Source: a virus. Taken from it: DNA of 11,709 nt. Both the position numbers and the translations under genes were made by a program. Position 1 is the first letter of the stretch. Every line of letters starts with the position of its first letter. The DNA lies in the UHGV virus genome UHGV-0058547; one strand, written 5' to 3'. Of the stretch, positions 1 to 5,647 are shown one piece after another. A model generated the notes under the pieces. That model ran no database searches, was not told where the DNA came from, and saw nothing but the letters and a program-made list of their open reading frames with translations.

Positions 1-699
1 ACCGGAGGAAGTAGGAACAGTAGCGGACTCACCACCACCGGACTCACCACCACCGGACTCACCACCGCCAGACTCACCACCACCATTTTGGGGGGTTGAG
101 GGTTTATCAGAGGGGTCAGCTACAGCACCTGTAGGCTTCCATGTTGCAGCGCAAACAGTACCATCACCCTGACAAACAATGACACCAGTAGCCTCATATT
201 CACAGCCGTTATAGTAGATATAGCGACCACCATCATATGAATCAACATTATTAAATACACCTTCTTCTGGCGGCTTCGCTTCACAAATTTCTTCTGGTGT
301 CGGGTCAGTAGGTTTTTCATCAGGAACAGAACGCTGAATATTACCAACAATATAAGCCGTTAAAGACCAATATTTATCCTTCTGCCCTGGTGAATCGCTG
401 TAAGTACAATCGCCAGTAAAAACAAGACGGAATTCAGAATCAGGCCAGATACCCTCATAAGTTGGTTTAATCCGAGTAAATACACTCTGAGCACTGGATT
501 TAGCACCCTGACAAGCGGAGGCCTGCATAGCAGCATCAATATAGTAAACCGTTATCTTAGAGCCATCCTGATTGGTTATTTGCTTACTTTCAGCATAGGC
601 AGAACTTTGATAAGTGGATTTAGTAATGCTTTCCCATGACTCAGCATGTGAAAAAGGAGAAATGAGGACAGCGGAAAGAATTAATATTTTCCTTCTCAT
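1..699 (-). CDS. gIII: Minor coat / adsorption protein g3p, N-terminal part (233 codons, runs off the window start)
   Basis: ATG at 699. My manual translation is open down to position 1 and begins [19 protein letters not shown]|ESWES... (signal peptide). Next comes a ~130-aa domain I cannot assign, then a Pro/Glu-rich linker. After that, [33 protein letters not shown] matches the M13 g3p N1 segment RYANYEGCLWNATGVVVCTGDETQCYGTWVPIG. A (GGGES)4 linker follows. This ORF is absent from the ORF track because it has no stop inside the window. Confidence 0.9.
25..84 (-). repeat. Four tandem 15-bp units (ggactcaccaccacc) encoding the (GGGES)4 linker of g3p
   Basis: Units at 25-39, 40-54, 55-69 (1 mismatch) and 70-84 (1 mismatch). 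They are in frame with gIII and are typical glycine-rich inter-domain linkers of Ff-type g3p. Confidence 0.9.
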
Positions 700-745: not shown

Positions 746-988
746 TCAAACCGCTTTTGAAGAGAATTTTTTGAAAATACGAATGGCAAGCCCAGCGCCA
801 ACCACAGCAACAACAACAGGCCATACTTTACCAATGAGATCATTTGCCTGAGTCAACAAAGCATCCATTGCCTGACCTGCATAATCAGTACCACCTGTAG
901 CGCCTTCAGCCGCAAAAGAACTTGCAGAAATAAAAAGCGCAGTTGAAGCCAGAGCAATTTTATATTTAACAGTAGACAGAATTTTCAT
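746..988 (-). CDS. gVIII: Major coat protein g8p precursor (80 aa)
   Basis: Signal peptide [26 protein letters not shown]|AEG. The mature part is acidic N-terminus, hydrophobic core [14 protein letters not shown] and basic C-terminus [11 protein letters not shown]. It is near-identical in layout to IKe g8p (...QANDLI..WPVV...FKKFSSKAV as recalled). Confidence 0.95.
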
Positions 989-1191: not shown

Positions 1192-1509
1192 TTAACCTTT
1201 GATCTCTGCGATGCCACCATCGGAAGCAACATTATAAGTTACACCTTCCCTACCCTCCATTGACCACGCACGGACATAGACAGGAATTTGAACTAATTTC
1301 CCAATGAAAGCATTCGCCTGGTTCATTAGACCTGCGTTAACGAGAGCCTGAGAAACTCGAATAATAATTTGATCCTGCTTTGTACCACCAAAACCATCAG
1401 GTATTTCAAGGCCAATACCAATTTCATTATAATAGCCCTGACCATTAACTTTATTACGTTGGCGGGCTCCCAACATTTTACCCTTAACGAAAAGACCATA
1501 ATTAGACAT
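1192..1509 (-). CDS. 105-aa protein in the gV (ssDNA-binding protein) position; function inferred from synteny only
   Basis: It sits between gII and gVII exactly where Ff/IKe encode g5p. I see no convincing similarity to M13 or IKe g5p as remembered. It is packed tightly against its neighbours: the gII stop is at 1521 and the start here is at 1509. Confidence 0.6.
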   Translation of the reverse strand: MSNYGLFVKGKMLGARQRNKVNGQGYYNEIGIGLEIPDGFGGTKQDQIIIRVSQALVNAGLMNQANAFIGKLVQIPVYVRAWSMEGREGVTYNVASDGGIAEIKG

Positions 1510-1520
1510 ATTACTTTCCT

Positions 1521-1835
1521 TTAATGCCAGCTACTGGCGTGCGAAATACGGTTGTAATCGAAAATAAAACCTTTCTCATAAATCCATAAGGGGATTTCCG
1601 CTGGCTTGGCTTCCAGCGTTCTTATTAGCGGAACAACGTTATTAGAGTCTGGTGAATCACAATAGAAATTAATATCGATACCGAACGAAAGCAATTCTCT
1701 TCTATGGCGATAAAAAGTGTTATGAGGTAACATTTCTTTCATGTTAGCCCCTTGTTTCCAAAGTAAATAAGTTGACTGTATTTTTCTTGGCAGTTTCGTT
1801 ATTTTTTCATCACTTAAAATAGCATTCTGATTCAT
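1521..1835 (-). CDS. gX: g10p-like product from an in-frame internal start in gII (104 aa)
   Basis: The internal ATG at 1835 is preceded by GGGAGA 8 nt upstream. The product starts MNQNAILSDEKI, aligning with the M13 g10p start MNIYDDSAVLDAI. By analogy with Ff; expression not demonstrable from sequence. Confidence 0.55.
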   Translation of the reverse strand: MNQNAILSDEKITKLPRKIQSTYLLWKQGANMKEMLPHNTFYRHRRELLSFGIDINFYCDSPDSNNVVPLIRTLEAKPAEIPLWIYEKGFIFDYNRISHASSWH

Positions 1836-2573
1836 TTCTATTCTCCCTACATATTCAGAGAATAATTGACGTGGTGTTTTCATATTCCAGTTAGCGCCAA
1901 GCGTTAAATTTAAATCAATAAGCTCAGTTGTTCTTAATGTTAATTCAATACGTAATTTATCTTTCGTCCAGTCCAGTAACCCGGCTCGTACAAACTCTTC
2001 GGCTATCTGGTGCCCTTTTTTACCAGAAACGTGTTCATCATATTTTGAATAAAATTTCAGACTCCATCGACGGGAGTTTTTACCTAAATAAACTGTACCG
2101 CCTTTCCCACATGCGCGACCATGGCGTGTTTTAGCTTTAAATTCGGCGGCATAAAGCCATGATCTGACATTTTCCAGCGTAGATAATGAATACATGTAAT
2201 TAATGTCAATACGTGAAATTTTATACTGACCTGCCATAACGGCTTTATAAGACGCTAAATCATGAGGAATATTCAATAAGGATAAAATCCTGGCATAGAC
2301 CGTCAACATGAGCCCTTGTATATCATCCGACCCAACAACAGAATGCCCCTGCAGAAACTTGGAAGGATTACCATCAATGTACAAATGTGTCGCTTTACCT
2401 TCGCCATTAGATCCTATCGATCGTACTTTCATCGTTGCTTCATGCGAACCGCGAACAGTCAGTCGCTTAACGGTTTCCCACTCAATTGCACCGTCAGCAT
2501 CAACGCTGACAACACTCCCCGCCGGAAGCGGTTTGTGTGTGCAAGGGAAAATCCCGGTAAGCCAATCGATCAC
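1521..2573 (-). CDS. gII: Rolling-circle replication initiator g2p (nickase), ~350 aa
   Basis: Colinear matches to M13 g2p: PSKFLQGHSVVG vs PAKVLQGHNVFG; YKISRIDINY vs TTISRIDATF; C-terminal NNVVPLIR vs NNVVPLVR. I prefer the GTG at 2573 as start. It is preceded by GAGGA 7 nt upstream and gives MIDWLTG..., like M13 MIDMLV.... The track ORF extends to a GTG at 2615. Confidence 0.92.
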   Translation of the reverse strand: MIDWLTGIFPCTHKPLPAGSVVSVDADGAIEWETVKRLTVRGSHEATMKVRSIGSNGEGKATHLYIDGNPSKFLQGHSVVGSDDIQGLMLTVYARILSLLNIPHDLASYKAVMAGQYKISRIDINYMYSLSTLENVRSWLYAAEFKAKTRHGRACGKGGTVYLGKNSRRWSLKFYSKYDEHVSGKKGHQIAEEFVRAGLLDWTKDKLRIELTLRTTELIDLNLTLGANWNMKTPRQLFSEYVGRIEMNQNAILSDEKITKLPRKIQSTYLLWKQGANMKEMLPHNTFYRHRRELLSFGIDINFYCDSPDSNNVVPLIRTLEAKPAEIPLWIYEKGFIFDYNRISHASSWH

Positions 2574-2742: not shown

Positions 2743-2925
2743 ATGGCAAAGCGCACGACTTATAACGTGACGGAAGAAAGAAAAATGAAACTAGAACGAC
2801 TGGCTATAAATGCCAGTGTAAAACTAGGAAAAACAATTACATGGACAGAGATTTTAGGTTATCTGATTGATAACTACTCTAAAGATGCAGCAGAAGATCT
2901 CATGTCTGCCAAACAAAAGGATTAA
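2743..2925 (+). CDS. Small ribbon-helix-helix (CopG/Arc-like) transcriptional regulator, candidate phage repressor (60 aa)
   Basis: The N-terminus KRTTYNVTEERKMKLERLA fits a beta-strand then helix pattern, with a second helix at TWTEILGYLIDNY. It is transcribed divergently from gII across a repeat-bearing region. Confidence 0.65.
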   Translation: MAKRTTYNVTEERKMKLERLAINASVKLGKTITWTEILGYLIDNYSKDAAEDLMSAKQKD

Positions 2926-2942
2926 GTACCACGAATGGTACA

Positions 2943-2978
2943 AACGTGCAGTATTACCTACACTGCACGTTCTTTATT
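2943..2978 (+). terminator. Perfect 10-bp stem-loop after the RHH gene (possible terminator; see origin-like motif finding)
   Basis: AACGTGCAGT (2943-2952) pairs with ACTGCACGTT (2962-2971) across a 9-nt loop, followed by CTTTATT. A smaller hairpin GTACCA-cgaa-TGGTAC at 2926-2941 precedes it. Confidence 0.45.
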
Positions 2979-3013
2979 GTGCGGATTTTGAACAGCAACA
3001 AAGGATCAAAAGG

Positions 3014-4287: not shown

Positions 4288-4329
4288 AATCTAAAAGATT
4301 TTGGTTCGCACAATGACGTTATGCTAAAG

Positions 4330-4366
4330 AGGCCGCTGCGGGATTCGATTTTCGCAGCGGCCTTTT
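4330..4366 (+). terminator. Rho-independent terminator ending the plus-strand accessory operon
   Basis: An 11-bp perfect GC-rich stem, AGGCCGCTGCG (4330-4340) with CGCAGCGGCCT (4353-4363), has a 12-nt loop and is followed by TTTT. Confidence 0.8.
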
Positions 4367-4396
4367 CAACATAACGAGTCCTACATTATGCGCACC
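4364..4396 (-). other. dif-like Xer recombination site A (atypical 11-bp central region)
   Basis: The minus strand reads GGTGCGCATAA-TGTAGGACTCG-TTATGTTGAAA. E. coli dif is GGTGCGCATAA-TGTATA-TTATGTTAAAT. The XerC arm matches 11/11 and the XerD-like arm 9/11, but the spacer is 11 bp. Confidence 0.6.
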
Positions 4397-4555
4397 AACA
4401 TAAACCAAGGGAGAATCCAGTGATTTGTGGACATCCTTGTTCTCGCAGAATATGGATGTGCTGAGTCTGGTTGGTTCGCCTAACGGTTGAAATGTCTTGC
4501 GGCCTTCACTGGGCTTGTTGAGTGTTCTGAATGTTCGCTTCAGGAACTGATTCAA

Positions 4556-5647
4556 ATGAAACGATTAATACTTGCTGCGACTGTAATAAGTGCAAGCCTG
4601 CTGCCATTTACCTGTTCGGCAAATGCCGACTCACTGGGTATCAATAAAGACTGCGATAACCATCCTGTCAGCCAGTACGGCATGGACACCATTACCGCAT
4701 TCAGTCAGTACAAGACGGAATCGAAAAAATTTAAAGATGCACTGACTGCGTTCTGCAATAAAGGCAAAACCATGGGCGACATGGGATTTGAAGCTGCCAA
4801 TGCTCACTCTCTTGCTGAAGCAAGGAAATGGACTGACTCCAGTCTTCCGGGGGGAAATGAAGAGCAGAAAAAATTTTCAGCAGCCATGGGGAGCCTGCTT
4901 TACTATGCAATGCTGAATGGATTCTCTGGTTTTGACTATCCCAGGTCGCCCGAGCAAAAAGAAAAATCAGTAAGCACATTTAATCCAAATGAGATATGTG
5001 ATGACATATCATCTAAAGCAGCCAAATATTCAACCTCGAATCTCCCCCCTCAAGTACAGATTTCATTAGCTGAGTGGAATCAAATCAAAGGCGAGTTTCA
5101 GATGGTGTGTTTTGCGGGAGTTATGGCGGGTAACAATCGCCAGTCGGTTGACTCAAAAATATTGGCTGGAATGAATGATATAGGCCCAGAAGTGAATTTG
5201 AGTGCTTATCGTTCTGGTTCGGAATACCCAAAGCCTCGCAGCAAAAACAACACGGAAAAAATTGATGCTACAGCAAGGGAGAAAGCGGCTGCAAAGAAGA
5301 AAGCAGATGCAGCCAGAAAACAAAGTGCCACCAACAAAACAAAGCAGGCTGACGATTATAAATCCAGGAGTGTTCGCCTTGACTCCCCCGATTTTCAACG
5401 CTTTCAGTCTTCACTCAGAAATGAATTTATGCGGCGAATTGGTGATGCGAAGCGTTTTTCAGGAAAAGAATGTTCAATAAATGTCTGGATGTCACAGAAA
5501 GGTGAGGTTCTGTCAGCCAGGAAGGAATCCGGAGATGAAGAGCTTTGCTCTGTGGTATTGCAGGCATCGAAGGGAATGAGGCTTAGCCCTATGAGTAATG
5601 AAGTTTACGGAGTGTTCCGTAATCCATCCCTCAACTTTAAATTCTAG
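4556..5647 (+). CDS. Secreted protein with TolA domain II/III-like C-terminus (363 aa)
   Basis: ATG at 4556. The track ORF instead starts at an upstream TTG. Sec signal MKRLILAATVISASLLPFTCSANA|DS. There is a Lys/Ala-rich stretch REKAAAKKKADAARKQ. The C-terminus is GKECSINVWMSQKGEVLSARKESGDEELCSVVLQASKGMRLSPMSNEVYGVFRNPSLNFKF, compared with the E. coli TolA C-terminus GKTCTLRIKLAPDGMLLDIKPEGGDPALCQAALAAAKLAKIPKPPSQAVYEVFKNAPLDFKP as recalled. Confidence 0.85.
   Translation: MKRLILAATVISASLLPFTCSANADSLGINKDCDNHPVSQYGMDTITAFSQYKTESKKFKDALTAFCNKGKTMGDMGFEAANAHSLAEARKWTDSSLPGGNEEQKKFSAAMGSLLYYAMLNGFSGFDYPRSPEQKEKSVSTFNPNEICDDISSKAAKYSTSNLPPQVQISLAEWNQIKGEFQMVCFAGVMAGNNRQSVDSKILAGMNDIGPEVNLSAYRSGSEYPKPRSKNNTEKIDATAREKAAAKKKADAARKQSATNKTKQADDYKSRSVRLDSPDFQRFQSSLRNEFMRRIGDAKRFSGKECSINVWMSQKGEVLSARKESGDEELCSVVLQASKGMRLSPMSNEVYGVFRNPSLNFKF

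Follow-up and report, generated by a model that had tools for sequence, protein, structure and literature searches.

Genes and features of the window

The stretch of DNA analysed here, 11,709 nucleotides long and referred to as the window, carries a complete inovirus core with all core genes on the minus strand (Table 1). Dif-site prophages of E. coli (UM146 and C10 among others) are about 99% identical to it, as is a 7,938-bp circular 'plasmid' from Salmonella that is evidently a replicative form, and the pII protein of the Yersinia pestis phage YpfPhi is 87% identical to that of the window. On the basis of its identity to the dif prophages and of the similarity of its pII to that of YpfPhi, the window is a dif-integrating filamentous phage of E. 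coli of the CUS-1/YpfPhi type (for the group, see PMC4266046). As a megablast search of phage records yielded nothing beyond short similarity in gIV, to IKe and PEar, relatives were gathered through pII. Between gII and the element described below lies a divergent gene for a 60-aa product that has no family match; the gene is placed as the regulator is in YpfPhi and CTXphi (PMC4266046), and the cargo genes follow downstream of it on the plus strand.

Table 1. Coordinates of genes, origin elements and matches of the covariance model R1 (positions are those of the window unless another genome is named)
Feature	Position	Strand	Details
gII, replication initiator pII	1521..2573, ORF reaching 2615	-	350 aa from annotated start; PF05144 E=9e-70, PF05155 E=2e-29; RefSeq annotation of identical proteins
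gV	1509..1192	-	
gVIII	988..746	-	
gIII	spans window ends	-	
gVI	11099..10755	-	
gI	10754..9660	-	
gIV	9745..8387	-	
Two small ORFs	8317..8009 and 7891..7658	-	
60-aa gene, putative regulator	2743..2925	+	divergent from gII; between probable origin and gII
Hairpin 1 of probable origin (nick hairpin)	2943..2971	-	AACGTGCAGT GTAGGTAAT ACTGCACGTT; perfect 10-bp inverted repeat, top R1 model match, family covariation
Palindrome (hairpin 2), GTACCA TTCG TGGTAC	2926..2941	-	inverted repeat one base after hairpin 1; putative pII binding site
Predicted pII nick, GTAGGT^AATA	2955..2956, between T2956 and A2955	-	model register with M13 T5780/A5781, CTTT^AATA
Whole origin-model match (best R1 match in window)	2922..2976 (read 2976..2922)	-	48.2 bits, E=2e-12
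R1, other strand of window	2938-2990	+	17 bits, E=0.008
R1, L006		-	42.3 bits, E=1.3e-10
R1, L006		+	8.5 bits, E=3.1
R1, best match in M13	5760-5814	+	19.2 bits, E=0.0016
R1, best match in IKe	6548-6602	+	14.5 bits, E=0.044

Two further observations concern this map. The 170-nt interval that separates gII from the divergent 60-aa gene contains TGAGTTCA three times without mismatch, at 2617-2624, 2664-2671 and 2688-2695 (as TGAACTCA when read on the gene strand); these are candidate operator or pII-regulatory sites. Both ends of the window (1-60 and 11650-11709) lie inside the glycine-rich repeat of gIII, and because joining them produces a frameshift there, the 'circle' is probably an assembly that was broken in, or collapsed across, the gIII repeat, or one that derives from a tandem prophage array.

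A two-part hairpin element with the design of the Ff origin

Just past the 60-aa gene, the minus strand reads, in order, AACGTGCAG tgtaggtaata CTGCACGTT t GTACCA ttcg TGGTAC, and the corresponding order in M13 is GAGTCCAC gttctttaata GTGGACTC tt GTTCCA aac TGGAAC. The 10-bp hairpin, which an earlier note on this DNA had mentioned as an alternative structure, proved to be a perfect inverted repeat (2943-2952/2962-2971) and is the dominant feature of the fold predicted for each strand (-16 kcal/mol, z about -4.2). As its stem is a perfect palindrome, the strand can be assigned by the loop and the flanks only. On the minus strand, T^AATA stands in the loop right before the 3' stem arm, and directly 3' of the hairpin follows the second, covarying inverted repeat. 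No Rfam family was found at this hairpin, and a search at the hairpin of the attachment site (see below) returned sub-threshold noise only.

The likeness to the Ff phages (f1/M13/fd) lies in design rather than in letters. Both have a stem of 8-10 bp, a loop with T^AATA before the 3' arm, one or two T residues and a palindrome of 6-7 bp, with 10 nt from TAATA to the palindrome in either case, and in both the element is found on the gene-sense strand upstream of a gII whose product is a PF05144/PF05155 initiator. Hairpin 1 is the equivalent of Ff hairpin D, and the palindrome that of the Ff TGTTCCA-AAC-TGGAACA repeats. In contrast, only 24 of 55 positions are identical (window 2976..2922 against M13 5760..5814), the stem sequences are unrelated, the loop is GTAGGTAATA where Ff has GTTCTTTAATA, the palindrome is GTACCA/TGGTAC instead of TGTTCCA/TGGAACA, and the window, unlike Ff, has a divergent gene between the element and gII. 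IKe shows the same architecture, with 25 of 55 positions identical to the window; its GAGTCCAC stem is common to IKe and Ff and absent from the window, and in the model register its origin is nearer to that of Ff (36/55 positions). The pII of the window has approximately 24% identity to that of IKe and is shorter by about 70 residues.

A covariance model places the element among known viral-strand origins

Alignment of pII homologues led to 76 genomic loci (pII 28-99% identical), which were oriented with gII on the plus strand. Most of them carry a sense-strand hairpin upstream of gII whose stem sequence differs between loci, whose loop has (T)AGTAATA as its last letters, adjoining the 3' arm, and behind which TTGTCYCA-n3/4-TGRGAC follows, as exemplified by AAGGAACG gcttagtaata CGTTCCTT ttgtcccattttggg and AAAAGTCGGG tactggtaata CCCGACTTTT gtctcatt. 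A covariance model, R1, was built from 14 distant-relative sites (pII at most 52% identical), with the window group, Ff and IKe left out, and searched with filters off. Helix 2 was omitted from R1 and tested separately, since its spacer is not of constant length in the ungapped seed alignment.

The best match of R1 in the window is the minus-strand element, with 48 bits against 17 bits for the plus strand, where a match exists only because the stem is palindromic (Table 1). The same preference (42 against 8.5 bits) was seen in pZ0117EC0117-1 (L006, NZ_CP098188.1, 14,367 bp), an annotated E. coli plasmid consisting of two head-to-tail copies of a 7.1-kb inovirus. The E-values for M13 and IKe are modest; nonetheless, each of these matches is the top one in its genome and lies exactly at the known viral-strand origin. 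The nick of M13, within CTTT/A, is numbered 5781/5782 in the literature (PMC11765958) and counts as T5780/A5781 in NC_003287, inside the R1 match, and the IKe match corresponds to the annotated viral-strand origin (6554-6599, NC_002014). Among the 76 loci, R1 yielded 79 matches at E<=0.01, 76 of which (96%) are on the gII-sense strand; 32 of the gII-sense matches are located 10-87 nt and 28 are located 309-1474 nt upstream of gII. In the window group, the longer distance is due to the regulator gene, which is inserted between gII and the origin.

Base pairing is maintained while the stem changes. In the seed alignment 95.5% of cells are paired and 7 of 8 pairs have changed on both sides (34-58% paired in slid controls), and in the 71 distinct matches 95.8% are paired and all 8 pairs have changed on both sides (33-49% in slid controls), percentages that are inflated because the alignments were selected for the hairpin or fitted to the model; the diversity of the stem around a fixed loop is nevertheless plain, with 178 compensatory cells in the 71 distinct matches versus 54 +/- 7 in shuffles. 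The loop core G-T-A-A-T-A is present, position by position, in 65, 70, 64, 68, 59 and 70 of the 71 distinct sequences; the window has GGTAATA, the majority of the family AGTAATA and Ff TTTAATA. As for the downstream palindrome, at least 5 of 6 positions are paired in 75% of family sites compared to 4% in shuffles, and its compensated types include GTCTCA/TGAGAC, GTCCCA/TGGGAC, GTACCA/TGGTAC and GTAACA/TGTTAC. Intermediate origin forms are found on two marine gammaproteobacterial contigs that encode relatives of the window-type pII: one (L119, 479-533) joins an Ff-type hairpin, GAGTCCAC..CTTTAATA..GTGGACTC (loop ctttaata), to the family palindrome TGTCTCA tag TGAGAC, and the other (L056, 1200-1250) has the hairpin GAGTCCAC..CTTTAATA..GTGGACTC of Ff/IKe type.

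Taken together, homology in sequence and structure to the experimentally defined origins of Ff and IKe, strand specificity, covariation and position make it very probable that 2926-2971 on the minus, gene-sense strand is the plus-strand (viral-strand) rolling-circle origin of a CUS-1/YpfPhi-type inovirus, built on the two-part design of Ff. The predicted nick at 2956/2955 follows from the register of the model.

Two other functions of the hairpins need to be weighed against this assignment. They begin one base past the stop codon of the 60-aa gene (end at 2925), and many relatives have a T-rich tail behind them (CTTTATT, TTTTATT, CTTTTCT), as would suit an intrinsic transcription terminator of that gene and nothing else. 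Nevertheless, a simple terminator scan makes no call at the hairpins, R1 recovers the Ff and IKe origins, and we regard a pure terminator as very unlikely because the same structure is situated 10-25 nt upstream of gII in distant relatives that have no convergent gene, because the loop sequence is conserved although a terminator has no need of it, and because the tail in L006 is the C-rich CCCCCGCCCC. A secondary role of the hairpin as terminator of the 60-aa gene is possible. Both hairpins are also predicted to be stable in gene-sense single-stranded DNA, and hairpins of the Ff intergenic region, as annotated in IKe, include a minus-strand origin (an RNA polymerase priming site) and a packaging signal. 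That the element is one of these instead of the plus origin appears improbable to a high degree, given that R1 matches the viral-strand origins of M13 and IKe while the minus-origin and morphogenetic-signal hairpins of IKe are annotated elsewhere (6141-6196 and 6333-6438), and that a TAATA loop with an adjoining palindrome is the signature of a nick site beside an initiator-binding site. We therefore retain the viral-strand origin as the preferred reading.

In many distant relatives, a single gII is preceded by two or three origin-like sites that share one orientation and often differ in their stems (L055 at 1472 and 2928; L076 at 2859 and 2926; L059 at 99, 448 and 1314; L071 at 327, 439 and 1124; L062 at 2293 and 2932). 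One such site could serve for initiation and another for termination, or the sites could belong to satellite elements or be traces that the formation of hybrids has left. In the window itself, a weak, non-significant model match on the minus strand (2576-2628, 12.8 bits, E=0.15) is located right at the start of gII; its sequence, TGTTAGTAAGTC..TTTTTGTAATTTTGAGGA, has no stem and is also present in the Salmonella circle (L002, 4565-4617). As the origin of distant relatives sits at this very place, 10-25 nt upstream of gII, the match may be a decayed ancestral origin.

The plus-strand resemblance to M13

The earlier note had directed attention to the opposite strand, on which CACGTTCTTTA at 2966-2976, its only occurrence in the window, is identical over 11 nt to the M13 plus origin (CACGTTCTTTAATAGTGG in M13); both the placement and the identity were confirmed. 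If GTTCTTT^A within it were a working Ff-type nick site, the antisense strand would be packaged or the origin segment would be inverted, and besides the exact identity this proposal can draw on a possible stem with 5 of 6 pairs and on a distance of roughly 350 nt to gII. The chance estimate that accompanied it, 0.006, is about right for one fixed 11-mer (we computed approximately 0.01), but looser matches are common: 28 of 300 shuffles contain a match of at least 11 nt to some part of the 18-mer considered in that note, and 95 of 300 contain one to the 71-nt M13 core origin, which makes the 11-nt match by itself unremarkable. The full Ff 18-mer is absent from both strands of the window at up to three mismatches, and GTTCTTTA with one mismatch allowed gave 22 scattered matches where 14 were expected, an uninformative result.

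Comparison with relatives whose pII is 85-100% identical speaks against the proposal. The exact 11-mer, with its CTTTA tail, occurs in only 6 of 20 distinct flank variants; on the plus strand the hairpin is followed by CTTTA, TTTTA, CTTTT, TTAAA, CTAGT, CCAGA, CTGGA, TTTGA or CCCCC, the last of these in L006. The proposed stem CTGCAC/GTGCGG can indeed form 5 of 6 pairs in the window, but it shares an arm with the perfect 10-bp stem, with which it competes, it lies outside the minimum-energy fold, and at least 5 of 6 pairs are retained in only 5 of the 20 variants. Of the letters of the 11-mer, the first six, CACGTT, come from the palindromic stem, namely its 3' arm, and the remaining five, CTTTA, from a non-conserved T-rich flank, whereas in M13 the same letters form the end of the 5' stem arm and the loop. 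The identity thus pairs non-homologous parts of the two origins. Nor is there a strong reason to expect an Ff loop sequence here. The description of the initiator as clearly Ff-like was overstated, for the Pfam families PF05144 and PF05155 are shared, yet identity to IKe pII is only about 24-28%, in partial segments; furthermore, IKe itself lacks the 11-mer and has CACTATGTTTA at the corresponding position.

Considering also that R1 favours the minus strand in both the window and L006, that nearly all family matches are gene-sense and that YpfPhi virions are reported to contain the positive strand (PMC4266046), we find a plus-strand nick site extremely unlikely. Since the origin reads on the gene-sense strand, neither an inverted origin nor antisense packaging is called for. 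Plus-strand CACGTTCTTTA is a chance look-alike without a role of its own; coincidence, one of the possibilities listed in the earlier note, was hence the right one for the motif itself, and the note had found the right locus through the wrong motif, strand and structure.

Packaged strand and a proposed mechanism

In line with a viral-strand origin on the gene-sense strand, positive-strand single-stranded DNA has been reported for YpfPhi virions, as noted above. The UM146 prophage has a perfect dif site at its 3' end in gene-sense polarity and a hybrid site at its cargo end; these junctions fit a CTX-type integration of the single-stranded gene-sense DNA, although integration of double-stranded DNA predicts the same junctions.

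By homology with Ff, and by analogy with the plasmids pT181 and pC221, initiation may be pictured as follows. pII would bind the palindrome GTACCA-TTCG-TGGTAC (2926-2941) on the presumably supercoiled replicative form, the adjoining 10-bp inverted repeat (2943-2971) would be extruded or melted, and pII would then introduce a minus-strand cut within the loop sequence GTAGGT^AATA, probably between 2956 and 2955. From the 3' OH, synthesis would proceed toward lower coordinates, first across the palindrome and the antisense 60-aa gene, then across gII, gV and onward; after one round, the regenerated site would be cut and the displaced gene-sense strand circularised, coated with pV and packaged.

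In pT181 and pC221, the initiator binds the ICRIII palindrome and nicks the extruded loop of ICRII, the extrusion of which needs negative supercoiling (PMC5775427). The working logic, a binding palindrome beside a nick hairpin, is the same as in the window, but these are Gram-positive plasmid replicons with a PF02486 initiator, and the mechanism alone is alike. The possibility that the element is itself a pT181-family origin was rejected, as pII scores 17.3 bits against PF02486 (Rep_trans), below the cut-off of 29.6 bits. The origin of CTXphi offers a closer parallel in position: ori(+) lies past the 3' end of the divergent regulator gene rstR, the nick is in an apical hairpin loop, and the prophage is integrated at dif and forms tandem arrays (PMC4439123, PMC4266046). 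The window shares with CTXphi the place of the origin relative to a divergent regulator, a nick that is predicted to lie in a hairpin loop, and dif integration with tandem arrays; unlike the window origin, that of CTXphi spans 167 bp and needs HU, and its initiator, RstA, is not of the pII type. Sequence similarity between the two origins was sought and not found. The origin of the Xanthomonas phage phiLf was dropped as a comparator, having a different Rep superfamily and nick motif.

The origin design of Ff is textbook knowledge; what appears to be new is the probable origin of the CUS-1/YpfPhi group, for which we found no published or mapped origin in the literature accessible to our search, together with the family-wide signature. 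Its recognition removes an apparent anomaly, in that the window is an inovirus without an antisense origin, and provides a testable origin and nick position for phages linked to the virulence of E. coli K1 and Yersinia pestis. The signature, i.e. a variable stem, a loop ending in AGTAATA and TTGTCYCA-n-TGRGAC on the gII strand, could serve to annotate the origin and the polarity of the packaged strand in many uncultured gammaproteobacterial inoviruses, and may be of use in phagemid building.

An invariant hairpin between changing modules

Apart from one base of the loop, the 29-nt hairpin is identical throughout a set of close relatives that comprises 38 viral contigs (pII 85-100% identical), E. 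coli prophages and the Salmonella circle. The palindrome GTACCA cgaa TGGTAC (2926-2941, plus strand) is exchanged in other relatives for GTCTCA ggaa TGAGAC, which amounts to two compensated pair changes. The 10-bp hairpin and its loop recur in two other phage lineages, the NC101 prophage and pZ0117EC0117-1, again just past a regulator gene, even though their regulators and morphogenesis genes differ from those of the window and both flanks of the hairpin are different. One copy of the inovirus in L006 has a frameshifted gII and an origin loop with a 1-nt insertion, both of which may be sequencing errors.

The 3' flank on the plus strand is variable among the close relatives (CTTTATTG, TTTTATTG, CTTTTCTG, TTAAATTG, CTAGTTTTG, CCAGATTTG, TTTAAATTG, TTAGATTG, CTGGATTG and TTTGAGTTG). 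Beside the hairpin, at 2977-2995 (plus strand), TTGTGCGGATTTTGAAC is semi-conserved (TTGTGCRAWTTTTRAAC), even where the downstream cargo gene is different.

Across the window and 29 distinct related sequences, 14 types of cargo-side flank and 7 types of regulator-side flank are joined by this same, invariant 29-nt hairpin, so that reassortment of modules takes place at the origin. Tentatively, the origin hairpin could double as the point where cargo modules and replication modules change partners by way of tandem dif arrays, an idea that we consider possible though doubtful. In arrays of CTXphi, hybrid genomes joined at the nick arise by rolling-circle synthesis from one origin to the next. 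In the same manner, synthesis that starts at the origin of one prophage and ends at that of a neighbouring, different prophage would yield a hybrid genome joined precisely at the nick. By eye, the one loop base that varies, which is 5' of the predicted nick, seems to go together with the flank on the cargo side, but at the clustering used it does not separate the types, since cargo-side type 0 is found with both variants. An identical pattern would result from ordinary homologous recombination inside the conserved hairpin.

The attachment site and a TolA cargo module

Two inverted dif-like sites, at 4303-4330 (plus strand) and 4369-4396, match E. coli dif at 21 of 28 (counted by eye) and 20 of 28 positions, respectively, and enclose a GC-rich 10-bp hairpin, GGCCGCTGCG..CGCAGCGGCC (4331-4368). 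This segment, 4303-4396, is a CTX-type attP, as has been proposed for YpfPhi (PMC4266046), and the junctions of the UM146 prophage use the site equivalent to 4369-4396. An integron attC-like site at the cargo boundary was also considered and rejected by eye, its flanks not fitting RYYYAAC/GTTRRRY.

Adjacent to the attP, a module at 4397-7619 is bounded by the repeated XerC-arm sequence CATTATGCGCACC and contains a 315-aa ORF and the gene of a secreted protein whose C-terminal domain is that of TolA (4487..5647, PF06519 E=6e-11). The module is missing from most related prophages (matches with 65% coverage) and is found as a unit on a plasmid of Enterobacter kobei (H30, 96.7%); in E. coli C10 it forms the right end of the array. 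Its appearance is that of a separate Xer-dependent element. It is speculation that the TolA domain, in the periplasm, acts as a decoy against pIII-mediated superinfection.
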